Of a stretch of DNA of 64,000 bases, positions 12,970 to 38,986 are shown piece by piece (position 1 is the stretch's first letter; the number at the start of each line of letters is the position of its first letter). The position numbers and the translations under genes were made by a program. The notes beneath the pieces were generated by a model. It was given only the letters and a program-made list of their open reading frames with translations, did no database searches and was not told the origin of the DNA. This DNA is from a candidate division FCPU426 bacterium (GTDB lineage: Bacteria > Oederibacteriota > JAUXIB01), in the NCBI GenBank assembly GCA_030621225.1, contig JAUXIB010000001.1, positions 1,253-65,252 of the forward strand, read 5' to 3'.

Positions 12970-13242
12970 TTGTTGTCGTGGGTTGTGGGTCGCGAGGCAG
13001 CTAAATAGTTTGTGGTTCGGGAGATGCTCTGAAGTATGAGTAAGGTAGTATCTAGTATCTAGTATCTGGTATCTAGTTTGGTTTCTAAACATTTAGCTGA
13101 GTGAGCCCTTCGACAATGCGCAGAACTAGATACCAAACGCTAACGACCAAAACAGCATACAGGAAAAAGCGCTACTTTAGCGGCAGACTATAGTGGTCGC
13201 AAGACGTTCGCGGCGAACGATGTGCGATATGCGAACAACGGG

Positions 13243-15483: not shown

Positions 15484-15688
15484 GTTATGAATTCTGAATT
15501 ATGAATGCTGAATTGGAAATGCGAACCACTGCTGAATCAGGGCTAACTTCCGGGGCTTTTAATTCTTAACGGAATGTCCTAGCTAACGGTAGTGGTTATA
15601 ATGCATATGGGCCCAAAAACAAATGACTTGACATGCCTTACAATGGGAGTACAATTCTGCTACTATATATATCAGAGGGGAGAACGTC

Positions 15689-20437: not shown

Positions 20438-21600
20438 AAAGCAACCCGAACCCCGAACACGGGACACGGGACGCGGGATATGGGGTCGGAGCAAACAACG
20501 ATTTGCGCCTGGTTTTTTGGGAAACTACGGCTGCCTGTAATTTGCACTGTCGGCATTGTCGTCGCTTGGATGATGTAGAGCAGGCGCTCGAGGATCAGCT
20601 GGATACGGCGCAGGCTAAGCGGCTTATCGACCAGATAGCTGAGCTGGCGGAAGCACAGGCAAGGCAGAAAGGACACGGGACACGGGACACGGGACACGGG
20701 ACGAACAAAGTCATTCTCGTTCTTTCCGGTGGCGAGCCTCTGATGCGGCAGGATGTTTTTGAGTTGGCCCGTTATGCGGTGAGTAAAGAACTGACCGTGG
20801 CCATGGCCACTAATGGCACGCCGGTGGACGAGGATAAGGCACGGCTGATCGCGGCATCGGGTATCAAGCGGGTAAGCGTCAGCCTGGACGGTGCGCTGGC
20901 TGAGACACACGATAATTTTCGTGGTGAACAGGGCTCGTTTGCAGGAGCGCTGCGTGGTTTTCGCCTGGTGAAGCAGGCGGGGGTGGAAGCGCAGATCAAT
21001 TTTTCGCTGGCCAAGCAGAATGAGCGGGAACTACCCCAGTTGTATGACCTGGCAGTGCGCGAGGGAGCGTGCGCGCTGCACATCTTTATGCTGGTGCCGG
21101 TGGGTTGCGGACTTGAGCTCAGCGAGGCGGACATGCTGAACCCAGATGACTATGAGCGGGTGATGGGTTGGATCTATGAGCAGAGCCGTTCGGGGAAGAT
21201 ACAGCTCAAGGTGACCTGCGGGCCGCACTATTACCGGGTGATCCGCGAGCAGGCCAAGCAGCGGGGCGAAGAACTCAACGTACAGACACACGGTATGGAG
21301 GCGGTAACCAGGGGCTGTCTGGGGGGTATTTCAGTCTGTTTTGTTTCTTCTTTGGGGGAAGTATTTCCCTGCGGCTATTTGCCCACGGCGGCGGGCAACG
21401 TCACCAAGCAGAGCTTGAAGGAGATATGGGAAAAATCCGAGGTGTTTCAGCAGTTGCGTGATTACAGCCTGCTGGAGGGGAAGTGCGGCGTTTGCGGTTA
21501 TCGCAAGGTCTGCGGCGGCTGTCGCGCGCGCGCTTACGCCAAGACCGGTAATATGCTCTCTGAGGAACCATTCTGCGCGTACATACCGAAGAGCAAGTGA
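20422..21600 (+). CDS. Radical SAM protein with a C-terminal SPASM domain; a peptide- or cofactor-maturase class.
   Basis: CNLHCRHC (CxxxCxxC), the SAM motif LSGGEPL, and SPASM cysteines CGPHYY...CGVCGYRKVCGGCRARAY. There are in-frame GHGTRD heptamer-repeat insertions. An alternative TTG start lies at ~20503. Confidence 0.75.
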   Translation: MSGELESNPNPEHGTRDAGYGVGANNDLRLVFWETTAACNLHCRHCRRLDDVEQALEDQLDTAQAKRLIDQIAELAEAQARQKGHGTRDTGHGTNKVILVLSGGEPLMRQDVFELARYAVSKELTVAMATNGTPVDEDKARLIAASGIKRVSVSLDGALAETHDNFRGEQGSFAGALRGFRLVKQAGVEAQINFSLAKQNERELPQLYDLAVREGACALHIFMLVPVGCGLELSEADMLNPDDYERVMGWIYEQSRSGKIQLKVTCGPHYYRVIREQAKQRGEELNVQTHGMEAVTRGCLGGISVCFVSSLGEVFPCGYLPTAAGNVTKQSLKEIWEKSEVFQQLRDYSLLEGKCGVCGYRKVCGGCRARAYAKTGNMLSEEPFCAYIPKSK

Positions 21601-21790: not shown

Positions 21791-22375
21791 TTGGTGGATA
21801 AATCCATAGAATTATTAGTTAAGCAGGCCAAACAAGGCAATCCGGAAGCCTTTGAAAAGCTGGTAGTGCTCTACCGGCAGAGGATCTATCGTGTGGCTTT
21901 CCGCGTGGTGCGGGAGAAAGAAAGCGCGTTGGATGTGGCCCAGGAAGTTTTTATCAGAGTCCATGCTGAGTTAAAGAACTGCCGGGGAGAGGCGGCTTTT
22001 GAGGGGTGGCTCTATAGGTTGGTTACTAATCTTGCTATTGACCATTATCGTCGGGCCAGGAAGCGCCGCTGCCTGTCTCTTTTTAAGGACTTTGCGGGAA
22101 AGGAAAGCCCGGAGCGCGTTTTAGAGGCCGGCCGGGCGAACGAGCGGCTGGGCAGAGCCTTGGATAGCTTGACTGACCGCCAGCGGCAAATATTTGTGCT
22201 GAAGCATTATCAGGGATTGAGCATCGTCGAGATCGCCGGGGTGATCCGCGCGGCGGAGGGAACGGTGAAAGCTACGCTGCATCAAGCGGTTGGTAAGATG
22301 AGGAATTTTTTGCTGGATGAAGCTAAAAGGGACGCGGGACCCGGGACACGGGACTCGGGACCCGCAAAGGGTTGA
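21791..22375 (+). CDS. ECF sigma factor.
   Basis: Region 2 (GWLYRLVTNLAIDHYRRARKR) and region 4 (LSIVEIAGVIRAAEGTVKATLHQAVGKMR). The C-terminal tail is encoded by a CACGGGA-type repeat. Confidence 0.8.
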   Translation: MVDKSIELLVKQAKQGNPEAFEKLVVLYRQRIYRVAFRVVREKESALDVAQEVFIRVHAELKNCRGEAAFEGWLYRLVTNLAIDHYRRARKRRCLSLFKDFAGKESPERVLEAGRANERLGRALDSLTDRQRQIFVLKHYQGLSIVEIAGVIRAAEGTVKATLHQAVGKMRNFLLDEAKRDAGPGTRDSGPAKG

Positions 22376-22376
22376 C

Positions 22377-23399
22377 ATGGACTGCGACAAGGTAAAAGAA
22401 AGACTAGCACTCTACTTCTACGGCGAGAGTGGCGGTGAAACGCGAGCCATAAAGGCACATCTGAAAAAATGCCCGGTTTGTCGTAGTGAGTTTGCGGAGC
22501 TGAAGCAAGTCGGGAAGCTGGCGGACGGGATGGAGATACCGCCGGTGGGCGACGGGGAATGGGTCCGTTTTGCTGACAATGTGCGGCAGGGCATCGTTTC
22601 CCGCCCGCTACACGGGCGTTTTCTGCGTCCCCTTGTGCTTTGGCCTGCTCTGGCCGCGGCCGCGGCGGCGTTTATTTTGCATCTTCAGTTTACTCCCGCG
22701 GAGAAGATAAGCGGCGAGACCGTACCTGTTTGTGGTGATCAGCTGGCCCTTGCCGAAGATAGCTCGGCTGAAGAGTCGGCGGCGCGAGTGGGGGCCGCCG
22801 CGGAGTTTCAACTGAGCGAGCCAACGAAGAAGCAAGCGCCGCGGATAGAGCTTGCCGCGCAGGCGCCGGCTGCGATGGAAAAAGACGAGGAAACCGCTCA
22901 GGTTGTCCGGGAGCCAGAGTTCGCTTCTGGAGAAACGATCGATCAGCGACCGTTGGGGTTCGTTCGGCCGGGAGCGGCGCTGCCGGGACCAGCGGCAATG
23001 GACGCCGCCGGGACCACACAGCGTCCCGTCGCTGTCGCGAGCTGCAAAGATGGTAAGGGGGACGACGCAGGGGATATCCCCCGCCCGGAACCGACGGCAA
23101 GCGCTACGCCGTTGAGAGACAGGATAGTCTTGAAAAATAATAAGATAAACCCGTTATTGGGAGATAAGGCGACCATCGTTTACCGTTTGCCGGAAGGTGG
23201 CCGCGTACGTCTGGCGGTCTATAACAGCCTGGGGGAACTGATGCTTGTCCTCTATCAGGGAGAGAGGAATGCCGGGACGTTTGAAGAGTACTGGGAAGGC
23301 GCCAATCGGGCGGGTGCTGTGGTTAGCGCCGGCATCTATTTTGTTAGTATTGAAACGCCCTCCTATAACGAGCGGCGTAAGATAGTAGTGGTAAAGTAG
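22377..23399 (+). CDS. Anti-sigma factor with a zf-HC2 domain, one TM helix, an acidic Ala/Pro-rich linker, and a C-terminal T9SS-type (FlgD-Ig-like) sorting domain.
   Basis: HLKKCPVCRSEF motif and TM helix LVLWPALAAAAAAFILHL. The C-terminal ~85 aa (NNKINPLLGDKATIVYRL...VYNSLGEL...WEGANRAG..SAGIYFVSIET...KIVVVK) align with the C-termini of four neighbouring proteins. Confidence 0.65.
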   Translation: MDCDKVKERLALYFYGESGGETRAIKAHLKKCPVCRSEFAELKQVGKLADGMEIPPVGDGEWVRFADNVRQGIVSRPLHGRFLRPLVLWPALAAAAAAFILHLQFTPAEKISGETVPVCGDQLALAEDSSAEESAARVGAAAEFQLSEPTKKQAPRIELAAQAPAAMEKDEETAQVVREPEFASGETIDQRPLGFVRPGAALPGPAAMDAAGTTQRPVAVASCKDGKGDDAGDIPRPEPTASATPLRDRIVLKNNKINPLLGDKATIVYRLPEGGRVRLAVYNSLGELMLVLYQGERNAGTFEEYWEGANRAGAVVSAGIYFVSIETPSYNERRKIVVVK

Positions 23400-23412: not shown

Positions 23413-25746
23413 ATGCGTTTCTCAAGCAGAATACTTATTATCACCTGTTTCGTTCTGTTGCTGGTCGCCGGTAAAGCAGAAGCATATACCGTGGTATTTC
23501 CTGATCCTAACCTTGAGGTGGCGATAAGAAGTGCGATCGGGAAACCCGTGGGTGATATAGATAATACCGAGCTCATCGGTCTCACCACGCTAACTGCTTC
23601 TTATAGCGGTATCGCCGATCTGACCGGGTTAGAGGAATGCGTGGATCTTATATACATAAACTTCTGGGGTAATTCAATATCCGACATTAGCCCGTTGTCT
23701 GGTCTGAGCAACTTGCAGGGCCTTCTTTTTCGAGATAATTCCATTAGTGATATCAGCGCACTGTCTGGGTTGATCAACTTACAGACCATTGGGTTCAACT
23801 CTAATTCCATTAGTGATATCAGCGCGCTGTCGGGGTTGACCAACTTACAGACCATTAGGTTCTACTCTAATTCCATCAGCGATATCAGCGCGCTGTCGGG
23901 GTTGGTGAACCTGACCGATGTTTGGCTCGAATGGAATGCCATCAGCGATGTAACTGCTCTAGTGGCGAATTGCGACGCGGGGGGGCTCGGTGCAGGTGAC
24001 GCTGTGTATATCAGGAACAATCCCTTGAGTGCCCAGGCCGAAAACGTTGATATACCATATTTGCAGGGCAAGGGTGTCTTTGTACAGTACGGGGATTATA
24101 CGATGACTACAACGCTAACGCTTACAGCTGCTATTTCCACCACTCATACTCCCACACCGACAAGCAGCGTCACCTCGACAGTTACTCCCACAGCGACAGT
24201 CAGCGCTACCTCGACAATCAGCGCAACGGTGACCCCAACCCAGCAGGTGGTTGTTTTTCCTGATAGTGGCTTGCAAGCGGCTGTCAGGAGCGCCATTGGT
24301 AAGCCGGCGGGGGACATATACAAGACGGACCTGATCGGACTTACTCTTCTGGACGCGCACGGCTCGGGTATCAGCGATCTGACCGGGCTGGAGGAATGCT
24401 CTGATCTAGCCAGCCTTTTTCTTGCCGATAACAGCATCGTTGATCTTGCGCCGCTCTCTGGGCTGGGTAATCTTACCTATCTGGAACTGTCCTCGAATTC
24501 CATTAGCGATCTTAGCCCGCTGGCCGGGTTGACGGGCCTGGGTAACCTGTTGCTGGACAGCAATTCTATTAGTGGGCTCGGACCGTTGAGCGGTTTGACC
24601 TCGTTGACCAACCTAACCTTGAGTGGTAACTCGATTAGTGACGCTACGGCCCTGGGTTCTCTTACGACCTTGAAAGGTCTGAATCTGAATAATAATTTAT
24701 TGGCAAACCTCGCGGCGCTTTCCGCGCTTACAGTGTTGACCAGTCTTTCACTGGATGACAACTCTGTAAGTAATGTAAGTCCGCTTGCTGCGCTGACGGA
24801 GTTAACCAGTCTGGGGCTGAATGCTAATTCCCTAGCGGATATTTCCGCTTTGTCCGGGCTGATCAAGCTGACCCAGTTATATCTGCAGGAAAATTCTATA
24901 GTTGATATCAGTTCCTTGGCGGGGCTGCTCAAGTTAGATAATCTTTTGTTGAGGAATAATTCTATCAGTGAAGTGAGCTCGCTGGTGACGAACTGTGACG
25001 CGAGCGGTCTAGAGGGAGGCGACTGGGTGGATTTGCGGGGGAATCCCTTGGAGTCGCAGGCGTTGAATACGGATGTTCCCTATTTGCTAAGCAAGAGCAT
25101 CAACGTGATGTATGACCTTCCCCCGACGCCAACGCCAACGCCGACAGTGCGCTTGTCGGTAACGGTGCGGGCCTGTCCGGGGCAGGAAGATTATCTCCAG
25201 TTGCGCATGAGTTCTATTGACGCTTCATTCGTGGATTGTGATAGCGCTTACTTCCAAGTATATCTGCAAGCTTCTGCGGGGGTTCCGCTGAGCGTGAGCG
25301 CGGCAGCCGGTGACGGTAAAAGTTGTTGGGCGCGTTACTATCCTGAGCCTGGCTGGCGGGATATCGACGTTGTCTACGCTTATGCCAGGGACGACGAAGG
25401 TTCCTGGGGTGTGTCTAACGGAAGTTTCCAGCGGGAAATATGCTCGGAAGGCGGGGCAGTCATGCGCAACAACAAGATATATCCGCTTAAGAACGATCAG
25501 CCCGTGGTGGTGCAGTTTAACGCCAAGGGGCGATGCCGTGTTGCTGTCTATAACCAGGCCGGCGAGGTGGTGGCGGGCCTGCTGGGGGACGGCAGCGCCG
25601 CTATGATCTCGTTATCTGAGGGTACACACCAGGTTAGCTGGGGCGGGGAATCACGGATCGGGTCGTTGGTGTCAAGCGGCATATATACCATTGTGGTAGA
25701 GACCCCGGATTACGTGAAGAAGTTTAAGGTGGTTGTGATCAAGTAG
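23413..25746 (+). CDS. Secreted leucine-rich-repeat protein with two LRR modules, Thr/Ser/Pro linkers, a conserved pre-CTD domain and the CTD.
   Basis: Signal peptide, and 22-residue repeats of the form NSISDIS.LSGL.NL. It has a duplicated N-cap (VVFPD..L..A.RSAIGKP) and the C-terminal KFKVVVIK sorting domain. Confidence 0.7.
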   Translation: MRFSSRILIITCFVLLLVAGKAEAYTVVFPDPNLEVAIRSAIGKPVGDIDNTELIGLTTLTASYSGIADLTGLEECVDLIYINFWGNSISDISPLSGLSNLQGLLFRDNSISDISALSGLINLQTIGFNSNSISDISALSGLTNLQTIRFYSNSISDISALSGLVNLTDVWLEWNAISDVTALVANCDAGGLGAGDAVYIRNNPLSAQAENVDIPYLQGKGVFVQYGDYTMTTTLTLTAAISTTHTPTPTSSVTSTVTPTATVSATSTISATVTPTQQVVVFPDSGLQAAVRSAIGKPAGDIYKTDLIGLTLLDAHGSGISDLTGLEECSDLASLFLADNSIVDLAPLSGLGNLTYLELSSNSISDLSPLAGLTGLGNLLLDSNSISGLGPLSGLTSLTNLTLSGNSISDATALGSLTTLKGLNLNNNLLANLAALSALTVLTSLSLDDNSVSNVSPLAALTELTSLGLNANSLADISALSGLIKLTQLYLQENSIVDISSLAGLLKLDNLLLRNNSISEVSSLVTNCDASGLEGGDWVDLRGNPLESQALNTDVPYLLSKSINVMYDLPPTPTPTPTVRLSVTVRACPGQEDYLQLRMSSIDASFVDCDSAYFQVYLQASAGVPLSVSAAAGDGKSCWARYYPEPGWRDIDVVYAYARDDEGSWGVSNGSFQREICSEGGAVMRNNKIYPLKNDQPVVVQFNAKGRCRVAVYNQAGEVVAGLLGDGSAAMISLSEGTHQVSWGGESRIGSLVSSGIYTIVVETPDYVKKFKVVVIK

Positions 25747-25884
25747 ACGGCATACCCTACTTCGCTCTTTCGGAGCTTCGTAGAGCAAGCAGGATACGGG
25801 ATACAGGAAACCGGAAGCAGGATAAGGAATTCTGAGTTCTGAATTATGAATTATGAATGAGGCAGGCAGGGGGAGGGAGCGGAT

Positions 25885-26322
25885 ATGAAAAAAGCATTTA
25901 GTGCTGCGATGGTTGTTGGTTTGTTGTTGGTCACTACTGCTATTGCGCACGAGCCTGCGAAGGAGCAGAAGGAGAAGCACTTGCGTGTAAACGCGCAGGC
26001 GAACGCCTTCCTGGCCAAGGAATTGGGTGTGCCGCTGGCGGCGATACAGAACGCGCGTGGTATGGATTATCCCTTTAGCAATACGCTTTTCTTTGCGGTG
26101 GTGATTTCTCAGACCAGGGGCAAGGCAAAGATGAAGGACGTGGTTGTGCTCAGCGAAGCGGGGAGAAGCTGGGGGGAGATCTGTGAGCAGTATGGGTTGG
26201 ATTACGAGGTAATGGTTACGGAGAGAAGACGTGTTCTTAAGAGGATGCGGCAGGCAGGGATCGAAGTACCCGGTGTAACGGACGAGGAGTGGCAGAAATT
26301 ATTTGATTTAAAACCGGAGTGA
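25885..26322 (+). CDS. Small secreted protein of an unknown family; paralog of the gene at 28754.
   Basis: Signal peptide. The motifs VNAFLAKELGVPLAAI and DYPFS..FFFAVV.SQ.KGKAKMKDV are shared with the paralog. Confidence 0.5.
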   Translation: MKKAFSAAMVVGLLLVTTAIAHEPAKEQKEKHLRVNAQANAFLAKELGVPLAAIQNARGMDYPFSNTLFFAVVISQTRGKAKMKDVVVLSEAGRSWGEICEQYGLDYEVMVTERRRVLKRMRQAGIEVPGVTDEEWQKLFDLKPE

Positions 26323-26328
26323 TTTGGC

Positions 26329-28608
26329 GTGAGAATTTTTGTTCTGACAACGATTTTTTTGTTATTTCCAGTGTTAACAGGCTGGGCAATCCCGGTTTAT
26401 AACGGTGACACCCTCACCGATGATGACTGGCCGATGTTTGGCGGAAATATCCATCATACAGGGGTCGGCAAGGACCTGCCCAACTTTAAGAGTATGCAGC
26501 TCTGCGGTCAGAGATCGTTGGGGGGAGGATGGATAAAAAGCCAGCCGATAGCTGTGGCGGGAAGACTTTACGCTAATACGGAAGGGGGCTACACATACAG
26601 CTTGAATATCCATGATCTGAGCGCTCCGCCCTACTGGGTCAAAAACGTGGGCGGGGGTGTTTTTACCTCTCCTTTGTATTACAAGGGTAATGTTTATATT
26701 TTGGATCGTAATTCTCAGTTGTCGGCGTTTGACATTGACGGTAACTTGCTATGGACTTATACGGGTACCGCCAGTTATTATGCCAATCAGAACTCTCCCA
26801 TCGCTGCTAATGGCGTCATTTATTTCGGTGATATGATGGGAATAGTTTATGCGATAAATACGGATGGCACCCTCCGCTGGGGTAGGGCGCTGTATGATCG
26901 CGTACATACTGAAGCGGTCTATGATGTTGAGCGGGAACGTATTTACATCGGAGCTTCCAGCGGCAAGATTTATGTTCTGGATGCAGGGGACAACCCCGCT
27001 ACCTGGGGCAAGGTGGTTGGGATGGATGATATAGGAGGAGACATGCTTTATGGGGGCCTGTCTTTTTACAAGGGTGCTACATCGGCGGATGATAAGGTGA
27101 TCAGCGGCGGGGAGGACGGTCATGTGCATTCCTTTCGGGCGGAGCCCTTTGCTTTTTTGGATTCGTACGCTACTGGCGGTACCATTACTGCCGCCCCGGC
27201 TATCAAGGACGGTAGGGTTTATGTGGCCTCAAATTCGCATCGTGTCTATGGGCTTGACCTGTTAGCTGACGGTAGCTTTGCTGATGTATGTTATTCATTG
27301 AGCAATAATAATTATCCCAAACAGAGCCCCTGTATTATAGTAGCCTGTGAAATTATTGCTTCCGGTTGCCATGGGGACAGGGTTATTATGCGGTGTACGG
27401 ACTGTGAAACAGTGTGGTATGAGGATACTACCGCGGATACATGGGGGGGCTTGATATCGCACGAGGGGAAGATCGCGGTGACCGGCAAGAACGTGATCTT
27501 CACTTATTGCCCGGTGCTCGATATCCCTACGCTTACAGCAAGTATGACCTCTACTGTTACGCCCAGCGTGACTCCGACCGCCAGTCCCACTGCTACTATT
27601 AGCGCCAGTATTACCGCCAGTGTCACCCCCAGCATGACACCCAGTGCTACCCCTACCTTTACCTCCACTGTAACTTCTACTGCCACTGTTACCATAACCG
27701 CTACTGCTACCGTAACCGTCACCGGTACCTGGACAGAGACCGGCACGGTTACCAAGACCAGTACCGACACACTGGTGTTTACTCCCACTAATACTCTTAC
27801 TGTGACCGGTACTAACACTTTTACTTTGACCTGTACTGATAGTGTTACGCTTACCGATACGCCTACGGCAAGTCCGAGCCATACTTCTGTTGCTACGTTT
27901 ACCGACACGCCTACGGCAAGTTCGAGTCATACGCCCAGTGCTACGCGGACGGTTACTCCGACAGCTACTCTCACTGGCACCATGACTCCTTCTTCTACCG
28001 CAACTTTTACTATTACCTGTGAGGTGGAACCACCACAGCTATCGGTAAAGGTGGTCTTTGACCCGGAGCGCTCGGATGATCTGATGCTGATCATGAAGTC
28101 CTCCGAGCCGGTGGATTGCTCCCAAAGCTATTTCGAAGCCTATCCGCATTCGTATCCACGGGATAAGCGGGAGTGCCGTGAGGTCACCCAGGTGGACGAG
28201 ACCACCTGCCAGTGCTACCTGCCGCGCGAGGTGGGATTCGGTGATCTCGCTAAAGTCTACGCTTATGCCGTTGATCACTGCGGCAACCAGGGGGTCTCTG
28301 ACGGGGAGTTTGAGCTGGAGGTGATCCCGGATTCGGGAGTGGTGATAACCAGCAACAAGATCCGTCCGGGAAGCTGCGCCGGGATAATCTACCAGCTGGA
28401 GGACGCGACGCGGGTGGAGATAAAGATCTACAATCTGGCCGGGGAACTGATAAAGGTGATCCAGAACGGCAATCAGCCGGCGGGACGTTACCAGGAAGAA
28501 TGGTGCGGAGGTAACCAGGCAAATGAATTTGTGGCCAGCGGTATTTATGTCGTATATATACGCACGGATTTCTACGAGGTGACGGAGAAGATAGTGGTGC
28601 TGAAATAG
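26329..28608 (+). CDS. Secreted PQQ-repeat beta-propeller protein with a ~170-aa Thr/Ser-rich linker, a Cys-containing conserved domain and the CTD.
   Basis: GTG start with signal peptide. The N-terminus has the DDDWPMFGGNIHHTG motif and repeated Y.G.....YALD propeller blades. The TS-rich region spans 27.53-28.02 kb, and the gene ends KIVVLK. Confidence 0.7.
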   Translation: MRIFVLTTIFLLFPVLTGWAIPVYNGDTLTDDDWPMFGGNIHHTGVGKDLPNFKSMQLCGQRSLGGGWIKSQPIAVAGRLYANTEGGYTYSLNIHDLSAPPYWVKNVGGGVFTSPLYYKGNVYILDRNSQLSAFDIDGNLLWTYTGTASYYANQNSPIAANGVIYFGDMMGIVYAINTDGTLRWGRALYDRVHTEAVYDVERERIYIGASSGKIYVLDAGDNPATWGKVVGMDDIGGDMLYGGLSFYKGATSADDKVISGGEDGHVHSFRAEPFAFLDSYATGGTITAAPAIKDGRVYVASNSHRVYGLDLLADGSFADVCYSLSNNNYPKQSPCIIVACEIIASGCHGDRVIMRCTDCETVWYEDTTADTWGGLISHEGKIAVTGKNVIFTYCPVLDIPTLTASMTSTVTPSVTPTASPTATISASITASVTPSMTPSATPTFTSTVTSTATVTITATATVTVTGTWTETGTVTKTSTDTLVFTPTNTLTVTGTNTFTLTCTDSVTLTDTPTASPSHTSVATFTDTPTASSSHTPSATRTVTPTATLTGTMTPSSTATFTITCEVEPPQLSVKVVFDPERSDDLMLIMKSSEPVDCSQSYFEAYPHSYPRDKRECREVTQVDETTCQCYLPREVGFGDLAKVYAYAVDHCGNQGVSDGEFELEVIPDSGVVITSNKIRPGSCAGIIYQLEDATRVEIKIYNLAGELIKVIQNGNQPAGRYQEEWCGGNQANEFVASGIYVVYIRTDFYEVTEKIVVLK

Positions 28609-28753
28609 CTCGAAGGAATTCTGAATTCTGAGTTATGAATTATGAAAACGGTGGTCAGTGAGCAGCTTGCCCAGAGCGTACTAACGCGAATGGTACAGGG
28701 ATACTAGATACGAGATACTGGCATCGCCTAAAGGTAAGTGTGGGAGGAGCACT

Positions 28754-29209
28754 ATGAAAGTCAAGCGGAACGGCAGAGCACTGGTTTCTATATTGATGTT
28801 TAATTTTTTTCTGCTTAGTGCAGCCCATGCATATGAGCCGGCCGAAGCGGAAAAGGTCCACTATGCCCGCGTCAATGGGCAGGTTAACGCTTTCTTGGCG
28901 AAAGAACTGGGGGTGCCTCTTGCCGCTATAAAGCAAGCCCGTGATAGAGATTATCCCTTTAGTTATGCTTTTTTCTTTGCGGTGGTAGTAAGCCAGGGGA
29001 AGGGCAAAGCAAAGATGAAGGACGTTCTGGATATGCACGACGAGGGAGTGACTTGGGGTGAAATTTGTATCGAGTTCGGTCTGGATTTGCGGGTGCTGAG
29101 CGAGGAGATGAAGCGAGTTTTTAGAAAAATGATTGACTCCGGTCTGGACGTTCCGCCCCAGACTTATAAGGAAAGAAAAAAGTTATTTGAGATTGGGCCA
29201 AAAAAATAG
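28754..29209 (+). CDS. Small secreted protein; paralog of the gene at 25885.
   Basis: 151 aa with a signal peptide and the same conserved motifs. Confidence 0.5.
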   Translation: MKVKRNGRALVSILMFNFFLLSAAHAYEPAEAEKVHYARVNGQVNAFLAKELGVPLAAIKQARDRDYPFSYAFFFAVVVSQGKGKAKMKDVLDMHDEGVTWGEICIEFGLDLRVLSEEMKRVFRKMIDSGLDVPPQTYKERKKLFEIGPKK

Positions 29210-29288
29210 GAAAGACTGTTTTACTCATAGTCTGCACCCGGTAACACGGTGCATACGGGCTAGACTAACCAAATTACGGATCACGACG

Positions 29289-31376
29289 ATGACTCGAAAA
29301 CTTGACATATTTCGCGCTCCCCTTAGTATATTCTTTCTAGGGATTTTCTTCTTGATCCCATCGGCGATCGGTATACCACCCGAGCTTTACAACGGCGATG
29401 ATACTCTTACTGATGATGATTGGCCGATGTATATGGGCAACATCCACCACACCGGCGCGCCATTGGTTGATGATCCCTGTTTTTGTGAGTTGCAGTGGTG
29501 TGACATTATAGAACACATGGGTGAGATGTGGTCCGAGCCGATTGCGGTAGATGGACGGATCTATGTTGCGACTGCGAGCGGGGAACTGGTGGCCGCAGAC
29601 CTGGATACCTTGCAGGTGCTTTGGCGGAGGTCTACTGTTTATCAGGTTTTTTCCTCTCCGGTTTATTACAAGGGAAAGATATATGTTGTGAATAGTCGTA
29701 GTCAGTTAATGGCCTGGGATACTGATGGCAATCCGGAGCCGTGGGTGTATATTCCTGCCACTTCCTATGGGAGTTGGAGTTGTCCGATGGTGGTGGATGA
29801 TGTCATCTATTATGGTGACCCGTGGGGAAAAAGGGTGTATGCCGTAAACTTGGATGGCAGTGAGAAGTGGAGGAACCATTTTAGCGGCGGAATCTCGAAT
29901 GCCCTTGTTTACGATAGGGCGAGAAGCCGTCTCTACGTTGCGACCGGCAATGGCTATGTCTACGGGGTGGATGTGACCGACAACGGGAAGGTCATCTGGG
30001 TGACAAAAACAGACGGGGGGATCCTAGGCCTTTCTTTTTATAATGATGCTATCCTGGCTTTCAGTGGATTAACTGTTTACTCCTTAGACGCCGCGAATAA
30101 CGGTGCCATAAATGATTCCTATTTTTTAGACAGCGTAATGGGAGCGCCCGGGGCGGTGAAGAACGGTATGGTCTATCTCACTCCTAATTGGAGAATTGCA
30201 GGTTTCCCGATCTTTGGCGACGGTACCTTTGGGGTAGGTTGGGCGGTTTGGTCAGACAACAACCACCCCACGCATACTCCGCCACTTGTGGTTTGTTGTA
30301 AGGTTATCACCAACGGTTGTCATGGGTGGGTAGAGATAGTAGAATGCGAGTCTTCGGTTATGTCAGTGGCCGGGCGCACCTCTGATAGCCGGGCATCGTC
30401 AATAGCTTATAAAGGAAAGATATATATGCCCGGCTCTACGGAAATAAATGTATTTTGCCCGGTAGCGTGCACGGCTACTTGTACGGTGAGCCCGACCATT
30501 ACCGTAACGCTGACTGCCAGTCCAACGCCCAGTGTAACGCTGACTGCGACCCCTACACCTACGCCCAGTTCCAGTCTGACGGCCAGTCCTACTCCGAGTA
30601 GTAGTTCGACGCCCAGTGTGACCGCTACTGCCAGTTTCACGCCCAGCATGACCCCCAGCGTTACCCCGACCATTACCTTTACCACGACCCCTACCTGCAG
30701 TCAGACCAGGACGGATACCCCGGTCTGTAGCGATACGCCGACAGCTACTGTTACTCCTACTTACACGGTAACGCCGACCATCACCTGCGAATCCGCGCCG
30801 CCGCAATTGTCGGTGAAGGTGGTCTTTGACCCGGAGCGCTCGGACGACCTGATGCTGATCATGAAGTCTTCCAAGCCGATAGACTGCTCCCAGAGCTATT
30901 TCGAAGCCTACCCGCATTCGTATCCACGGGACAAGCGGGAGTGCCGTGAGGTCACCCAGGTGGACGAGACCACCTGCCAGTGCTACCTGCCGCGCGAGGT
31001 GGGGTTTGGTGACATCGCCAAAGTCTTCGCTTATGCCGTTGATCACTGCGGCAATCAGGGGGTCTCTGACGGGGAGTTCGAGCGGGAGGTGATCCCAGAT
31101 TCAGGCGTGGTAATAACTAACAACAAGATCCGATTGGGAAGCTGCGCCGGGATAATCTACCACCTAGAGGACGCGACGCGGGTGGAGATAAAGATCTACA
31201 ACTTGGCCGGGGAGCTGATAAAGGTGATCCAGGACGGCAACCAGCCGGCGGGACGTTACCAGGAAGAATGGTGCGGGGATAACCAGACGAATGAATTTGT
31301 GGCCAGCGGTATTTATGTCGTATATGTACGCACGGATTTCTACGAGGTGACGGAGAAGATAGTGGTGCTGAAATAG
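29289..31376 (+). CDS. Second secreted PQQ-repeat beta-propeller-CTD protein; paralog of the gene at 26329.
   Basis: Internal ATG at 29289 gives signal peptide MTRKLDIFRAPLSIFFLGIFFLIPSAIG. The last ~190 aa are more than 90% identical to the paralog at the nucleotide level. Confidence 0.7.
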   Translation: MTRKLDIFRAPLSIFFLGIFFLIPSAIGIPPELYNGDDTLTDDDWPMYMGNIHHTGAPLVDDPCFCELQWCDIIEHMGEMWSEPIAVDGRIYVATASGELVAADLDTLQVLWRRSTVYQVFSSPVYYKGKIYVVNSRSQLMAWDTDGNPEPWVYIPATSYGSWSCPMVVDDVIYYGDPWGKRVYAVNLDGSEKWRNHFSGGISNALVYDRARSRLYVATGNGYVYGVDVTDNGKVIWVTKTDGGILGLSFYNDAILAFSGLTVYSLDAANNGAINDSYFLDSVMGAPGAVKNGMVYLTPNWRIAGFPIFGDGTFGVGWAVWSDNNHPTHTPPLVVCCKVITNGCHGWVEIVECESSVMSVAGRTSDSRASSIAYKGKIYMPGSTEINVFCPVACTATCTVSPTITVTLTASPTPSVTLTATPTPTPSSSLTASPTPSSSSTPSVTATASFTPSMTPSVTPTITFTTTPTCSQTRTDTPVCSDTPTATVTPTYTVTPTITCESAPPQLSVKVVFDPERSDDLMLIMKSSKPIDCSQSYFEAYPHSYPRDKRECREVTQVDETTCQCYLPREVGFGDIAKVFAYAVDHCGNQGVSDGEFEREVIPDSGVVITNNKIRLGSCAGIIYHLEDATRVEIKIYNLAGELIKVIQDGNQPAGRYQEEWCGDNQTNEFVASGIYVVYVRTDFYEVTEKIVVLK

Positions 31377-31640
31377 CTCGAAGGAATTCTGAATTCTGAG
31401 TTATGAATTATGAAAACGGTGGTCAGTGGTCAGTGGTCGGTGGATGGTGGTCAGTGAGCAGCTTGCCCAGAGCGTACTAACGCGAATGGTACAGGGATAC
31501 TAGATACGAGATACTAGCATCAAGTCTCGAGTTCTGGAAAAGAGTAACCAAGAGGTAAAAAACATCACAGTAGGGGCGTCCCTCTGCGGGCGCCCCTCGC
31601 CCAAAGGGCGAGTAGAGCCAAAAACCAAAGCGTCTCGATA

Positions 31641-31666
31641 AAAGCCGACATTATTGTCGGTTTTTT
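31641..31666 (+). terminator. Rho-independent terminator.
   Basis: CCGACA-TTAT-TGTCGG stem followed by T6. Confidence 0.55.
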
Positions 31667-31728
31667 CTGTTATTAATGGTTTAGTTTGATAAAATTAAGG
31701 CGATGTTGTTAGTGAGGGGGAGAATACT

Positions 31729-34104
31729 TTGCGTTATTTTCTGATCACTCTTTTGTTTGCTTCCTTGCTAATCGCACGCCTGGGTGCGATCGGCGGCAGT
31801 GGAGCCAACTTTCTGCGTCTGGAGCAGGGGGCCAGGCCTTTAGGTATGGGCGGCGCCTTTGTCGGTCTGGCCGACGATGCTGACGCTGTATACTGGAATC
31901 CGGCCGGTCTTTCCCGTCTGCGCTATCCCCAACTTACGTTCACCCATTATCAGGGCATTGCCGACCTGACGAGCGAATTTTTCAGCCTGGCTATCCCCAC
32001 TGAGAAGTGGGGCGGGTTCGGTTTAAATATCCTCTATAGCAGCGTAGAAGACCTAAAGCATTATAATAGCTTTGGCGTGGAAGTGGGTGAAATAGAAAAT
32101 TATGACCTGGCCCTGGAGACTTCCTGGGGCGACCGCTTTCACCCTCTCTTTAGTGCCGGGGCGGGCATGAAGTATTACTTTAGCCGCCTGGAAGAAGTAC
32201 ATGCTTGGGGCTATGCCATGGATTTTGGCCTGATCCATTACTTGCCCTGGTCCGGGGCTACTTTTGGTATGGCCTTGCGCAACCTCGGCCCGGGGATATG
32301 TTACCTGGCGGCCGCCGATCCGCTGCCCTTGAATCTTAAGTTGGGTCCTGCGGTCAAACGTCACCTGAGAGGGAGACACTGGTTGACGCTCTCCATGGAA
32401 ATGGATCGCATCCTGCTCTCGGGGGAAAACAGCTATATTCAAGCCGGGTTTGAATATGCCTACGGACGTATTTGTTTTCTGCGTGGCGGCTATCGTTTTG
32501 GCAGGGATAACGATTATTATTCTCTGGGCATGGGCTGTGGTCTCAAACCTGTATGGGTGGATTACGTTTATATTCCTTACGGGCCGATCGGTATGACCCA
32601 CCGTGTCTCACTGACCCTGGGCTGGCCGAAAGGGAAAAAGGAACTGCCGCGTATCTTTCGCAAGCGGACTGCCCGTCCGGTGGCCTATTTGACCGGGGAA
32701 GAGCGGATGGTATTGCCGCGGCAGTCCATTCAACTAAAGGCGGAAGTCATCAGTCTTGCTGAGGTTATAGATTGGCAGTTGAGCTTGGAGGACTGGCGGG
32801 GGAAAGTGGTGCGCGAATTTACGGGGCAGGGCGTCCCGCCCGCGGCGATCCTCTGGTATGGTAAGAATATAAACGGTCAATTGGTCGTCTCCGGTCGTTA
32901 TACCGGCAAGTTTTCCGTGCGGGACAGGAACGGCAGAAGGGGGACGGCACAACGGGATTATCATTTGTTGGAGGTAGAAGAGGTGGTAATGCGCTTGCCG
33001 GCCGCTGTGCTCTTTGATTCAGGGCACATTGAGCTTCGGGCGGCGGGAAAGGCGAGGCTGCGGGAGATTTATCAGGAGATAACGGGCAAATATCCCGGTT
33101 GTCGCCTGCGTGTGGAGGGGCATTCTGATAATGTTCCGCTTCGCCCGGGAGGGCCGGCGCGGGATAACCAGGAGCTTTCCGAGCGGCGTGCCGGCAGTGT
33201 GGGGGAAGTGTTGCGAGAATTCGGATTTCCCGCCGCGCGCTTGGGCATAGTCGGCTTTGGTTCCTTGCGGCCTATTGCGACTAATGACAACGACGCGGAT
33301 AGGGCCAGGAACAGGCGGGTGGAGCTTGTGGTGGAAAAGAGTGCGGCGGTAACCAAGTTGCCGCCGATTATAGGGAGTGATCTGACCCTTGATGGCAAAG
33401 GCAGCCCTTACTTGGTTGACGGGGACGTACTGGTACAGGCGGGAGCTACCCTGACCGTTGAAGCGGGAGTGGTAATTAAATTTGCATCAGGTTCGTACGG
33501 CGAAGCGACGGCTTCCTCTACTGTTTCAAGCGATCTTATCGTTTTGGGCGGTTTGCGTGCTGTGGGCGAGGCGGGAAGGCCGGTCGTTTTTATTGGCAGC
33601 GAGGGAGGGGCGTGGGGGGCGATTTTCTTCGGCCGTGGCGCGGGCGAAGACTGCCTGCTGGAGCATTGCCGTCTGGAGCGGGGGAAGATAGTTTGCAATT
33701 ACGCTTCGCCGGGCATCAGGAGATGTGTTATCAGAGAGGGTGGCGGTATTGAAGTGGGGCATAAGGCGGCGCCGATTATTGAAGGCAATCTGTTGGAGAA
33801 AAACAGCAGCGGTATTCTCTGCTGGTTTGACAGCTCGCGCCTTTCTTTGCGCTACAATACTATCAGCGGTAACAAGTATGGTCTGGTCCTGCGCGGCATC
33901 GGCGAGGCGGCCGTAGAAAACAACAACATCTGCGCTAACCAGATAGACCTGGCAAACATGACAACGCAGAATGTCAGGCTAGCCAATAATTGGTGGGGTT
34001 CTACCGATGTGTTTGAGATAAAGCGTAATGTTCACGACGGAGAAGATGACGCGGGCAAGGGGCTGGTCATCGTGGAGCCGGTATTGCAAGAGGCGGTCAG
34101 ATGA
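31729..34104 (+). CDS. Fusion protein: PorV/PorQ-like (FadL-like) outer-membrane beta-barrel, then an OmpA-family peptidoglycan-binding domain, then a right-handed beta-helix.
   Basis: TTG start after a GAGGGGGAG ribosome-binding site. The N-terminus LRLEQGARPLGMGGAFVGLADDADAVYWNPAGLS matches the signature of PorV-family barrels. The central region RLRVEGHSDNVPL...ELSERRAGSV...NRRVELVV is OmpA-like. The C-terminus has NosD-like parallel beta-helix repeats. Confidence 0.55.
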   Translation: MRYFLITLLFASLLIARLGAIGGSGANFLRLEQGARPLGMGGAFVGLADDADAVYWNPAGLSRLRYPQLTFTHYQGIADLTSEFFSLAIPTEKWGGFGLNILYSSVEDLKHYNSFGVEVGEIENYDLALETSWGDRFHPLFSAGAGMKYYFSRLEEVHAWGYAMDFGLIHYLPWSGATFGMALRNLGPGICYLAAADPLPLNLKLGPAVKRHLRGRHWLTLSMEMDRILLSGENSYIQAGFEYAYGRICFLRGGYRFGRDNDYYSLGMGCGLKPVWVDYVYIPYGPIGMTHRVSLTLGWPKGKKELPRIFRKRTARPVAYLTGEERMVLPRQSIQLKAEVISLAEVIDWQLSLEDWRGKVVREFTGQGVPPAAILWYGKNINGQLVVSGRYTGKFSVRDRNGRRGTAQRDYHLLEVEEVVMRLPAAVLFDSGHIELRAAGKARLREIYQEITGKYPGCRLRVEGHSDNVPLRPGGPARDNQELSERRAGSVGEVLREFGFPAARLGIVGFGSLRPIATNDNDADRARNRRVELVVEKSAAVTKLPPIIGSDLTLDGKGSPYLVDGDVLVQAGATLTVEAGVVIKFASGSYGEATASSTVSSDLIVLGGLRAVGEAGRPVVFIGSEGGAWGAIFFGRGAGEDCLLEHCRLERGKIVCNYASPGIRRCVIREGGGIEVGHKAAPIIEGNLLEKNSSGILCWFDSSRLSLRYNTISGNKYGLVLRGIGEAAVENNNICANQIDLANMTTQNVRLANNWWGSTDVFEIKRNVHDGEDDAGKGLVIVEPVLQEAVR

Positions 34105-35228: not shown

Positions 35229-37523
35229 ATGAATCTGAAGAAAATCACACTGGTCGCTTGCCTGGTGATGGCGGTTGTCTTGATGCCGGCATTGGCCCAG
35301 AACATACCGCAAACAATGAACTACCAGGGGCAATTATTAGATCCCGGCACTAAACAGCCCAAACCGGACGGGGCGTATAATTTTGAATTCCGCATATACG
35401 ACTCCATTCCTGCGCAGGTCTGGAGCGAAATCCAGAACGGGGTCCCGGTGAACGGGGGGCTTTTTAATGTAACGCTTGGTGAATTTACGCTGATCAATCT
35501 TTCTTTCAACGATCAATATGAGCTGGAGATATGGGTGGGGGGCGAAAAGTTGAGTCCCCGTATTAAGCTGAACAGCGTTGGCTATGCTTTTCAGGCAGAA
35601 GAGGTGGATGGTTTTAGTGCATCGACTATAGCAGCGGCCGATCGGATCCTGGCCTTGAATTCGAACACCGCTTTTGTCATCACCGCCGTCAATGGCCTCG
35701 GTCCGCTGATCGAAGCGAACAACGACGCCGGCGCAGGTAGTGCCATCCGGGGAACGAACCAATCGGGTACCGGCATTGAGGCGGTTAGCGACGTCAGGGA
35801 TGCCTTTGCTTTGCATGCGCGAAATACCGGAGGAACGGGTAGCGGTGATATGATCGGTGTTTACGGTGAGGGCGGAGTCGGTGTGGCCGGCAGGAGCACG
35901 GAAATGTGGGGCGTTGGCATCGGCGGCAAGGTCGAAGCAGTCGGTAATTCCGGGGTGGCGGTGATCGGTTTAAATATAGGCGGTGGGGACAGAGCTACGG
36001 GAATGACGGGAATCTTGGACAATAAGGACGCGGCGGTTACCGCGTATGGTGTTTTAGGGTCGACCAACACCCTTGAAGGAGCAGGGGTTTTCGGCGTAGC
36101 TGATAACCCTAATACCAAAGGGGTATCGGGCATTAATGTAAAAGGCGCGGGTATATCGGCTTTTGGTATGCCGGCTATTGAGGCTACGTCCACCACACGC
36201 AGTGCCCGTGCGATCATGGCCGCAAATACGGGAGAGCATGGCGCGGGGAGCGTGGTGGCTATTGAGGGTAACGCGGCTACCCCCGGCAATGAAGGTATCG
36301 GTGTGCAGGGCGTGGGGCAGTATGGCATTGTAGGCGCTTCGACGAATACCGTGACTAACGGCATAGGTGTTTACGGCGAGAATACTACTGCCGCTAATAC
36401 CGCCGCCGGCGTCTATGGGTTAAACAGCAACGGCGATAGCACTCCTAGTGTGATAACCGCGGGTGTGAGCGGCAGCAACCAGCAGAACGCCGGTGTGGAC
36501 GCGGTCGGCGTTTATGGTTTTACGCAGAGCCGCGGTGCTGCCGGTGTTATGGGAGAAAATTTAGCTGTGCTGGGCGCGGGTGATCCGGTGGGCGTGCGCG
36601 GCATTGTGCGTGACAGTAAGGGTGTTGGTGTGGAAGGTTTGGTGGATGATGTGACTCCGGGCGGTACGCAGATAGGTGTGCGCGGCTGGAGTAACTCGTC
36701 CGATGGTACGGGAGTGAAGGGCATGGCTGAAAAATATGCGGTTCATGGAATAACCGGCACCGCTGGGGGCTACGGAATCTTTGCTGAAAACACCGCCAAT
36801 GCCGGCGGGCCTGTAGCGTTACGCGCGGAGGCAACGGCGGGGATATCAGGTACGGGCGTACAGGGTGAGTCCTTTGACTTTGGCGTGTACGGCATCGCCC
36901 GGGCTTCCGGGGGCGCGGGAGTGTTCGGGCAGAACACAGATAACGCCGCCGTCGGCAATCAGGTTGGGGTGAGGGGAGATGCGTCCGCTCTCAAGGGTAT
37001 CGGCGTCGTCGGAGAGAACTGGGACATGACCCCGGGCGGCGCCCAGGTGGGAGTGAAGGGCACGGTCAACTCGTCTGATGGCATCGGCGTGCACGGAGAG
37101 AACGTTATCGCCGCCGGCGGCAGCACTGCCATCGGCGTGCTGGGCGAGGCGTTGGACGCGGGAGCGGTCGGCACCTGGGGACGCGGCGGCCTGGGCGGCA
37201 CGGGTGTGACTGCCGAGAATATGGATGCCTCGGGCGCGAGCGAGGCCCTGCGTGTGGTCAACGGTACGGTTGTCGTGTCGTCCCCCATTCTCGGTCGCCG
37301 GCAGTGGACCGCGGGGATGAATGAGGCGGTGGATCTGGGTCCGGGGGTCAACGTCCTCAAACCAGAGAGTATGATAATCGTCACTATTGAGGGCAATTTA
37401 TTGATTAATTTCGGTACCGTGACGACTACATACGGCACGCCTAATAGTTTTATGATACACACTAGTGTTAATCCGGTGCCTGTAAATACTTGGTATTCGT
37501 TTTTGATAATAAATCCATACTAG
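35229..37523 (+). CDS. Secreted glycine-rich repeat protein of about 764 aa.
   Basis: AGGAGG ribosome-binding site and signal peptide. It has dozens of G-[VI]-x-G-type repeats (GVYGENTTAANTAAGVYG, GIGVQGVGQYGIVG...). It has no CTD. Confidence 0.55.
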   Translation: MNLKKITLVACLVMAVVLMPALAQNIPQTMNYQGQLLDPGTKQPKPDGAYNFEFRIYDSIPAQVWSEIQNGVPVNGGLFNVTLGEFTLINLSFNDQYELEIWVGGEKLSPRIKLNSVGYAFQAEEVDGFSASTIAAADRILALNSNTAFVITAVNGLGPLIEANNDAGAGSAIRGTNQSGTGIEAVSDVRDAFALHARNTGGTGSGDMIGVYGEGGVGVAGRSTEMWGVGIGGKVEAVGNSGVAVIGLNIGGGDRATGMTGILDNKDAAVTAYGVLGSTNTLEGAGVFGVADNPNTKGVSGINVKGAGISAFGMPAIEATSTTRSARAIMAANTGEHGAGSVVAIEGNAATPGNEGIGVQGVGQYGIVGASTNTVTNGIGVYGENTTAANTAAGVYGLNSNGDSTPSVITAGVSGSNQQNAGVDAVGVYGFTQSRGAAGVMGENLAVLGAGDPVGVRGIVRDSKGVGVEGLVDDVTPGGTQIGVRGWSNSSDGTGVKGMAEKYAVHGITGTAGGYGIFAENTANAGGPVALRAEATAGISGTGVQGESFDFGVYGIARASGGAGVFGQNTDNAAVGNQVGVRGDASALKGIGVVGENWDMTPGGAQVGVKGTVNSSDGIGVHGENVIAAGGSTAIGVLGEALDAGAVGTWGRGGLGGTGVTAENMDASGASEALRVVNGTVVVSSPILGRRQWTAGMNEAVDLGPGVNVLKPESMIIVTIEGNLLINFGTVTTTYGTPNSFMIHTSVNPVPVNTWYSFLIINPY

Positions 37524-37732: not shown

Positions 37733-38986
37733 ATGATGCAGAGGACGCTATACGCTATACGCTATACGCTGTACGCGATCAACAGCGCGTTGTTGATCGC
37801 CGCATTGCTCAATATGCCGCTTTACGCCGCTCCGGTAGCTGTGAGCTCGGCCAACTATGAGATCGACTGGGACGTGGTCGACGCGGGCGGCGCGGCGCGC
37901 AGTTCGGCGACTTACTACGTTAACGACTCGCTGGGTCAGGCGGCAAGCAGCTTTGTCGGCTCAGTCAGCTATGATCACAGCATCGGCTTTCAACGGATGG
38001 CTTCGCCGACGATGACTGCCACACCGACCGCTACCGTAACGCGTACTGTTTCTGTTACCTATACGCCTACTGCTACGCCTACCGCTACCGAGAGTGCTAG
38101 TCATACACCGAGTTACAGCCCCACTTCTACCTCTACCGCTACATCGACCAGCACACCTAGTTGGACGGCTACTGATACTGAAACCAGTACTCCTACTGCC
38201 ACCTTTAGCTGGACGGAGACGGATACGCCTACAGCTACACCGAGCCGGACGGAGACAGCGACTCCCTCGGCCAGCCCCAGCCTGACCATGACGGCCACGC
38301 TGACCCGAACCCGGTCGATTACGCGTACGACCACGGAGACGTATACCCTGAGTTCCAGTCCTACTTCTACGCGGACGGCTACCAGGACGGTTACGCGCAG
38401 CGTTACTCGGACAATGACGCGCACTTCTACCGGGACGGCAAGCAAGACCTATAGTCCTACCCGCACTTGGACGAGCACGGCGACGCCTACTTTCACGCCG
38501 AAACCCACCCGCAGCGTCACCCTTACAGTAACCAGGTCAGCTACACATACGCACAGTGTTACGGTTTCGGCGACGCCAACCTGGACGCCTACGCTCACCC
38601 GGAGCGCGACTTATACGATCAGTTCCACTTACACGTCCAGCTCCACCGTTACGCCTACCTTTACCATAACGCCTACTTTCACACGTACGCCGACTTGGTA
38701 TCTGCCCGCTTTCCTGGACAAGAATCATTTTAATCCTGCCGCGGGCGAGGAATTGCTGATACGCGGTCTTGCCGCGCGGGCTGGGCACTTGACGGTGGAT
38801 GTTTACTCGATAAACGGCGAGCGGATCGGCCGGGTGTTGGAGCGGCAAGTGAAACTGAAAGAACCATATCGTACCAGTTGGAGCGGGCGTAACGCTACCA
38901 AGGATTTTGTGGGCAACGGCGTATACATGGTGTTGATCAAGTGCGGCGATTGGCAGGAGATCAAGAAGGTGATTGTGTTGAAGTGA
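37733..38986 (+). CDS. Secreted protein made almost entirely of a Thr/Ser/Pro/Ala-rich linker plus the CTD.
   Basis: N-terminal hydrophobic segment, about 250 aa of TPTATxT repeats, and the C-terminal NPAAGEELLIRGL...VYSINGERIG...WSGRN...GNGVYMVLIK...KVIVLK. Confidence 0.55.
   Translation: MMQRTLYAIRYTLYAINSALLIAALLNMPLYAAPVAVSSANYEIDWDVVDAGGAARSSATYYVNDSLGQAASSFVGSVSYDHSIGFQRMASPTMTATPTATVTRTVSVTYTPTATPTATESASHTPSYSPTSTSTATSTSTPSWTATDTETSTPTATFSWTETDTPTATPSRTETATPSASPSLTMTATLTRTRSITRTTTETYTLSSSPTSTRTATRTVTRSVTRTMTRTSTGTASKTYSPTRTWTSTATPTFTPKPTRSVTLTVTRSATHTHSVTVSATPTWTPTLTRSATYTISSTYTSSSTVTPTFTITPTFTRTPTWYLPAFLDKNHFNPAAGEELLIRGLAARAGHLTVDVYSINGERIGRVLERQVKLKEPYRTSWSGRNATKDFVGNGVYMVLIKCGDWQEIKKVIVLK

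Follow-up and report, generated by a model that had tools for sequence, protein, structure and literature searches.

Paralogous genes for surface proteins are well known to become homogenised over part of their length. In Helicobacter pylori, babA, babB and related outer membrane protein paralogues diverge in their functional regions, whereas their 3' segments are kept nearly identical by RecA-dependent intragenomic gene conversion. A second case comes from Porphyromonas gingivalis, where rgpA, kgp and hagA, which encode cargo of the type IX secretion system (T9SS), share modules that are more than 90% identical, a pattern attributed to domain rearrangement and to gene conversion by homologous recombination (PMC5266723). 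Here, we describe a clean new instance in an uncultivated lineage—two tandem cassettes in a stretch of 64,000 nt (hereafter, the window) from a candidate division FCPU426 bacterium (assembly GCA_030621225.1, contig JAUXIB010000001.1), each made up of a gene for a small exported protein followed by a gene for a secreted beta-propeller protein. Particular to this locus, the homogenised part comprises an export module and non-coding DNA, and every propeller gene is accompanied by an unannotated partner gene. With considerable confidence, we attribute the pattern to an ancient tandem duplication, followed by gene conversion of the 3' ~680 nt between the neighbouring copies in at least two events.

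The cassettes resemble the bab genes in combining divergent functional regions with homogenised 3' segments, but the H. pylori genes differ in fold and secretion route and lie at dispersed loci; moreover, conversion there serves antigenic or adhesin switching, and nothing at the cassette locus suggests switching. With rgpA, kgp and hagA they have in common that surface-protein paralogues carry near-identical modules while other parts differ, the system being T9SS there and T9SS-like here. The P. gingivalis genes, however, are dispersed and share haemagglutinin/adhesin domains, whereas the genes described here are in tandem and share an immunoglobulin-like (Ig-like) domain, the C-terminal domain (CTD) itself and 3' non-coding DNA. 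They also differ in having a non-catalytic, pyrroloquinoline quinone (PQQ)-like propeller at the N-terminus and a small partner gene upstream of each propeller gene.

Both cassettes lie on the forward (+) strand. Cassette 1 consists of small1 (25885-26322; 145 aa), predicted to be an exported, all-helical protein with a signal peptide, and propeller 1 (26329-28608; 759 aa). Cassette 2 consists of the paralogue small2 (28754-29209; 151 aa) and propeller 2 (29289-31376), which has 695 aa from the ATG at 29289 in a reading frame that is already open from a TTG at 29133. Propeller 1 comprises a signal peptide, a PQQ_2/BamB-like beta-propeller extending to ~27500, a linker rich in threonine and proline (T/P-rich; ~27501-28020) and a C-terminal module (hereafter, the C-module) formed by a Cys-containing Ig-like domain and a FlgD_ig/T9SS-like CTD (28021-28605); propeller 2 has the same architecture with a shorter linker. 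Signal peptides were assigned by visual inspection of the sequence.

Divergence between the cassettes is decisively non-uniform. In a global alignment, the small genes, propeller domains and T/P-rich linkers are ~50% identical at the nucleotide level, and from ~28035/30803 (copy 1/copy 2) onward each 60-nt block is 88-100% identical. The maximum chi-square test puts a breakpoint at 28042/30810, where identity changes from 55% to 91%, and the statistic is reached in 0 of 500 permutations. Measured more finely, nucleotide identity rises from 55% to 94% at 28048/30816 and stays high until 28725/31521, where the tract ends abruptly, 117 nt beyond the stop codon, with 28 nt left until small2 begins. 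We place its start at the DNA level at ~28048/30816 because the codons immediately 5' of it (28027-28041) encode the same amino acids, PPQLS, in both copies and yet differ at synonymous positions in four of five cases. The homogenised tract (28048-28725 in copy 1, 30816-31521 in copy 2; both + strand) thus takes in the final 186 codons together with their stop codon and a further 117 nt that are non-coding, with 41 mismatches in 678 aligned nt (94% identity) and a single 28-nt indel. Its non-coding part (28609-28725 versus 31377-31521) differs by one mismatch and that indel, and is otherwise identical (99%). Perfect runs of 71 nt (28165-28235) and 161 nt remain between the tracts and might permit further RecA-type exchange. 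The first-pass annotation, made from the sequence alone, had recognised the cassettes (25885 + 26329; 28754 + 29289) and their N-terminal divergence, and both observations are confirmed; it had also described a ~90-95% identical 3' block running into non-coding DNA, which is correct in identity and in its reach past the stop codon, although the block begins ~27 nt later than the 28021/30790 then given.

The same boundary is evident at synonymous sites. By the method of Nei and Gojobori, the proportion of synonymous differences (pS) is saturated in the propeller part (0.78, with a non-synonymous divergence, dN, of 0.59 and 39% amino acid identity), in the linker (0.78) and in the small genes (0.77, with a dN of 0.37 and 50% amino acid identity). 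Across the last 190 codons, pS drops to 0.24, corresponding to a synonymous divergence (dS) of 0.29, with a dN of 0.03 and 94% amino acid identity. Third codon positions hold 31 of the 45 coding mismatches in the tract, a mark of purifying selection on the protein after exchange (dN/dS ~0.1).

These values also bear on whether any exchange need be invoked, as the C-module might merely have been under much stronger constraint and have diverged slowly since an old duplication. The low ratio of dN to dS in the tract (0.03/0.29) would suit such an account, and a secretion or anchoring domain could well be constrained. Yet constraint on a protein does not sit with synonymous sites that fall from saturation to a pS of 0.24, with 117 nt of non-coding DNA that are 99% identical, or with PPQLS codons preserved as protein and not as DNA. 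A control is provided by the upstream gene for a leucine-rich repeat (LRR) protein, which carries a module of the same Ig-like and CTD type: when it is compared with its orthologue on contig L004, the LRR, Ig-like and CTD parts all have a pS of 0.75-0.77, and conservation is lowest in the Ig-like part (46% amino acid identity versus 66% in the LRR part). Since the module of these orthologues has saturated pS, constraint cannot explain 94% identity between old paralogues. We consider this alternative effectively refuted by the contrast in dS and the non-coding identity, and assign it next to no probability. The recent gene conversion or concerted evolution proposed in the first-pass annotation is, by comparison, supported by the breakpoint, by the contrast in dS that the suggested dN/dS profile brought out, and by the near-identical non-coding DNA.

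Within the tract, mismatches are unevenly spread: 44 fall in the 488 nt before position 28522 and 2 in the 204 nt after it (7 of 1000 permutations), and dS declines from 0.31 to 0.00 across the same point. These drops suggest at least two exchanges, an older one covering 28048-28725 and a very recent one nested within it, from ~28522 to 28725. The orthologous small gene on contig L003 gives a dS of 0.38, from which the older exchange would be about as old as the split from the L003 organism.

The non-coding part of the tract raises a different possibility, namely that a function at the nucleotide level—a structured RNA, an antisense gene or a regulatory element spanning the gene end and spacer—keeps the copies identical. 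The non-coding tail is indeed more alike than the synonymous sites of the older part of the tract, and it contains heptamer arrays of a kind that, in other bacteria, have been proposed as binding sites for regulators (PMC4679880). Against this, the tail shows no gain in folding over shuffled sequence (z = -0.09 and +0.52) and has no match in an Rfam search, coding mismatches are mainly at third positions, as expected where selection acts at the protein level only, and the tail tolerates a 28-nt indel. We therefore regard a nucleotide-level function as a scarcely credible cause of the identity. A terminator or structured RNA in the tail was likewise rejected; the one convincing intrinsic terminator lies further downstream, at 31640-31665.

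The heptamer arrays of the tail belong to a wider pattern. Units of GAATTMT occur after each propeller gene (28616-28646 and 31384-31414), and a third block of them lies upstream of cassette 1, in the spacer between the LRR gene and small1 (units at 25827-25857, within a block at 25824-25872, + strand); GATACNA arrays follow at 28700-28718 and 31496-31514. The downstream repeat-family copies that had been noticed inside the identical block are these arrays. The 28-nt insertion in copy 2 (31418-31445, + strand) amounts to four extra GTGGTCA-type units relative to copy 1; the tandem expansion first reported there as GGTCAGTG is thus real, with a heptamer as its unit and not an octamer. Across the window, 16 tandem arrays of period 7 have at least four units, versus 0-1 for each of periods 5, 6 and 8-11, and the GTGGTCA expansion is part of this window-wide excess of intergenic arrays. 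Examples are found at 323-354, 7188-7224, 13045-13080, 15480-15507, 20670-20706, 22328-22364, 25830-25864, 28616-28647, 31384-31451, 37744-37780, 44460-44487, 62182-62211 and 62730-62761. Nearly all are intergenic, just after stop codons or before start codons, and the unit varies from array to array (GAATTMT, GTGGTCA, GATACNA, GGACACG and others). The closest described counterparts are the intergenic TAACTGA direct repeats of Beggiatoaceae, Cyanobacteria and Bacteroidetes, which form arrays of 2-6 heptamer units near gene ends (PMC4679880). Both are short intergenic heptamer arrays close to gene ends, but the known systems use one fixed heptamer, whereas the unit in the window changes with each array. 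Separately, a period-7 run directly follows the stop codon of the propeller-CTD gene of a relative (L161).

As the contig derives from a metagenome, we also weighed whether the repeat could be a collapsed, duplicated or chimeric join, given that the perfect 71- and 161-nt runs could let an assembler switch copies and that an independent contig for cassette 2 was not found. The two tracts differ, however, at 41 sites and by one indel, and each runs into different unique flanks. In addition, Logan contig L001 (run SRR14923484) is 100% identical to positions 25833-28194 of the window, crossing the junction between the divergent and conserved parts of copy 1. Its end lies at 28194. Since the copies share their first long identical run from 28165 onward, the last 31-mer unique to copy 1 is 28164-28194, and a k=31 graph must branch exactly there if the reads hold both copies. 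The check for assembly collapse proposed in the first-pass annotation therefore speaks for two genuine copies, by way of the expected branch point and the differing sites, and an assembly artefact seems very unlikely.

Somewhat less improbable, though still unlikely, is a third source for the shared 3' module, either another paralogue at a different place in the genome or a longer array since shortened by unequal crossover. The LRR protein and another gene of the window carry related modules, which implies that module-bearing genes are numerous, the small gene on contig L003 is a mosaic of cassette-2-like and cassette-1-like sequence, which points to other exchanges in the family, and only 64 kb of the genome are in view. 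Nevertheless, none of the other modules within the window exceeds 31-43% identity to that of the tract, the sole outside relative found is 47% identical, and adjacent tandem copies are the simplest partners. That relative, the only protein returned by a C-module search of an index of 5.8 billion proteins, belongs to L161 and is also terminal in a propeller-linker gene; because the search did not return the window's own proteins, it says little about further copies in the same genome.

Gene conversion between the two neighbouring cassettes is thus well supported, resting as it does on the breakpoint, the contrast in dS, the non-coding identity, the orthologue control and the k-mer branch point. 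Several observations nonetheless weigh against parts of this reading. Read-level support for two copies of the tract is indirect, coming as it does through the k-mer assembly of L001. The nested, recent event might owe something to tighter constraint on the final 28 codons. Orthologous C-modules were not recovered from related genomes, as contigs L002-L004 end too early; clustering by genome or by cassette can for this reason be observed for the part outside the tract alone, where the flanks group by orthology, cassette 1 being closer to L002 and L003 than to cassette 2. For the proteins themselves, the CTD scores just below the TIGR04183 cut-off and is shared by an anti-sigma factor, such that T9SS export is not proven; evidence on the role of the small proteins is indirect, and they are without a fold match; and distant members of their family (P0035, P0045) adjoin apparent beta-barrel proteins or an AsmA-family gene and not propellers.

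The propellers match Pfam PQQ_2 (PF13360) at 60.1 and 51.7 bits (cut-off 27.6) and Pfam FlgD_ig at 33.0 and 31.9 bits (cut-off 27). They share the PQQ_2 matches with BamB and related propellers, but differ in falling far below the equivalog cut-offs, in not being lipoproteins and in their additional linker, Ig-like domain and CTD. An identity as BamB was rejected (TIGR03300 at 55.2 and 53.5 bits versus a cut-off of 285, and no lipobox Cys in the signal peptides), as was one as PQQ dehydrogenases (24.7 bits versus a cut-off of 480). In an AlphaFold2 (AF2) model of the C-module (predicted local distance difference test, pLDDT, 85), two beta-sandwich domains are seen, the second ending at the last residue; the T9SS protein PorU (6za2, E = 1e-7) is the best match in the PDB, ahead of generic tandem Ig domains. 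The proteins thereby recall type A CTD cargo of T9SS (TIGR04183) and the PorV shuttle in their signal peptide, terminal beta-sandwich of ~80 residues, PorV/PorQ-family neighbour and PorU match. They depart from it in scoring 21.0 and 20.8 bits against TIGR04183, the T9SS sorting domain, below the cut-off of 23, in the occurrence of the domain on an anti-sigma factor as well, and in that, beside the PorV/PorQ-family gene, no other T9SS core component is encoded in the 64-kb window. A T9SS-like export and anchoring route appears plausible, given that PorU is the best structural match of the model and a PorV/PorQ-family gene adjoins the cassettes; T9SS membership is not established, because TIGR04183 scores are below cut-off, the domain occurs on an inner-membrane anti-sigma factor and the window holds no further core gene.

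The small proteins, described in the first-pass annotation as an uncharacterised family that might provide cognate partners, chaperones or inhibitors of the propellers, match no Pfam or NCBIfam family. An AF2 model is all-helical (pLDDT 78 overall, ~90 in the core), with no Foldseek match in the PDB at an E-value below 0.8, and a PDB profile search gave a designed repeat protein as its sole match. Among 5.8 billion proteins, only two close relatives were found; an exhaustive profile search extended these to 29 proteins, most of them 136-185 aa long with a signal peptide at the start, and scans of genome contigs and metagenome contigs with the small-protein alignment gave no matches. Some proteins with multiple helix-turn-helix (HTH) repeats matched the profile through its C-terminal half. 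A DNA-binding role was rejected on inspection, as the members examined have a signal peptide or hydrophobic leader, except P0020, whose N-terminus is seemingly truncated, and the matches reflect a shared HTH-like unit. As far as can be judged from sequence and models, then, these are a rare family of exported, all-helical proteins that has gone without annotation, in keeping with the uncharacterised family first described.

Pairing of a small gene with a propeller gene recurs in every informative contig of the closer branch, down to 26% identity, which upholds the proposed cognate relationship at the level of conserved gene pairing. On contig L002, a small gene (55% identity) is followed, after a 6-nt spacer as in cassette 1, by a propeller gene whose product shares 57.5% identity with propeller 1, as against 40% with propeller 2. 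Because L002 groups with cassette 1, the cassette duplication predates the split of the L002 lineage. Contig L003 is close to cassette 1, with 93% identity in the mature small protein and then the start of a propeller-1-like gene, and in its signal-peptide region it agrees with cassette 2 instead (22 of 30 residues identical); although L003 is a low-coverage contig, this mosaic would represent a second recombination junction in the family. Contig L004 has the LRR-gene orthologue, a small gene and the start of a propeller gene, in that order. Its small gene contains an in-frame TAG (1360-1362) at the conserved Gly of a W-G-E-I-C motif, after which the frame is normal; possible readings are a pseudogene, a sequencing error and a site of read-through. 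The most distant of the paired genes (L005-L007; 26% identity) include P0022, 26% identical to small1 and present on at least 24 contigs, where its neighbourhood is a different one: a Tad-type secretin flanks it to one side and nuo genes to the other. This gene overlaps by 4 nt that of a 656-aa protein with a propeller, a Cys-rich junction, a T/P linker, an Ig-like domain and FlgD_ig. A further contig, L160, has a gene ending in an Ig-CTD, a small gene and a gene starting with a signal peptide. By contrast, a metagenome scan with the C-module found distant CTDs alone (25-47% identity), with a small-protein relative at 0 of 69 loci. Pairing is therefore old and confined to this propeller subfamily, and it speaks for a functional partnership, of which the form can be proposed only.

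Taken together, the locus may be pictured as an ECF-sigma-linked surface-protein cluster of an uncultivated, deep-branching bacterium in which an old unit of two genes is present twice in tandem—first the gene for a small helical protein exported by Sec, then that for a secreted PQQ-like propeller with a T/P linker, an Ig-like domain and a FlgD_ig/T9SS-like CTD. Non-reciprocal homologous recombination would have overwritten the 3' ~680 nt of one copy with that of the other, from the Ig-like domain and CTD through the stop codon to the end of the 117-nt non-coding tail; purifying selection would have acted afterwards, and the heptamer array would later have slipped by four units in one copy. 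Conversion may have been tolerated or even favoured in the C-module if both cargoes share export and anchoring machinery, of which the adjacent PorV-like protein is plausibly a part, and may have been excluded from the propeller and small genes if these diverged into cognate pairs. The small protein would most likely be a periplasmic partner of its own propeller, as an escort, chaperone or subunit. A more far-reaching proposal, which we put forward as a speculation with rather poor odds, is that these proteins, with two HTH-like units behind a signal peptide, form a family, not yet described, whose members serve T9SS-like propeller cargo as dedicated partners in the periplasm (escort, chaperone or regulatory subunit), each co-diverged with its own propeller, that repeated conversion keeps the Ig-like domain and CTD uniform for one export and anchoring machinery, and that the CTD-like domain of the anti-sigma factor could sense the state of this machinery.

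Upstream of the cassettes and on the same strand lie genes for an extracytoplasmic function (ECF) sigma factor (21791-22375), a zf-HC2 anti-sigma factor (22317-23399) and the LRR protein (23413-25746; 777 aa), whose Ig-like and CTD module is 31% identical to that of the propellers. The anti-sigma factor ends in a FlgD_ig/T9SS-CTD-like domain that is 43% identical to the propeller CTD (TIGR04183, 22.9 bits). Such a domain is odd on an inner-membrane anti-sigma factor, and it may act as an interaction module rather than as an export signal alone. Downstream, the only convincing intrinsic terminator after the cassettes is at 31640-31665 (+ strand); it probably ends the cassette transcript, and as the sole such terminator it makes co-transcription of the cassettes probable. 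Folding of the region 31522-31670 is much stronger than that of shuffled sequence (z = -3.9). Preceding the terminator, just past the end of the cassette 2 tract, is a GC-rich hairpin element (GGGGCGTCCCTCTGCGGGCGCCCCTCGCCC...GGGCGA; ~31570-31613), three tandem copies of which type lie directly upstream of the small gene on contig L003 (60-200). The next gene (31729-34104, + strand) encodes a PorV/PorQ-family protein (NF033709, 161.7 bits versus a cut-off of 90) in an unusual fusion, in which residues 25-297 form a PorV/PorQ barrel, 417-535 an OmpA peptidoglycan-binding domain and 645-756 a right-handed beta-helix/NosD-like region.

Two more putative surface-protein genes follow the cluster (35229-37523 and 37733-38986), one weakly matching the N-terminal domain of mosaic adhesive trimer fibre proteins from Bdellovibrio and the other ending in a CTD-like domain that is 29% identical to the propeller CTD. 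Elsewhere in the window are an IS1595-family transposase gene (17177-18052, - strand; 199.9 bits versus a cut-off of 75) with a 311-aa open reading frame without a family match after it (16245-17180, - strand), and an intergenic tandem array at 8327-8484 (37-nt unit, 3.6-4.2 copies, 85-87% match). The remainder is ordinary bacterial chromosome, with rho, comEC, xseA, prfB, aroB and pcrA. The best matches of Rho are 66-74% identical and come from many phyla, including Acidobacteriota, Omnitrophota, Ignavibacteriota and Methylomirabilis; at such identities, the organism is without a close representative in the genome collection.

From sequence, this case shows an export and anchoring module evolving in concert, non-coding DNA included, while the heads and partner genes diverge. 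A pattern of concerted evolution known from pathogens is thereby found in a deep uncultivated lineage. The conserved unit of a small helical protein and a propeller-CTD protein, which lacks annotation in the libraries, is a reasonable target for work on structure and interaction in the periplasmic handling of T9SS-like cargo.

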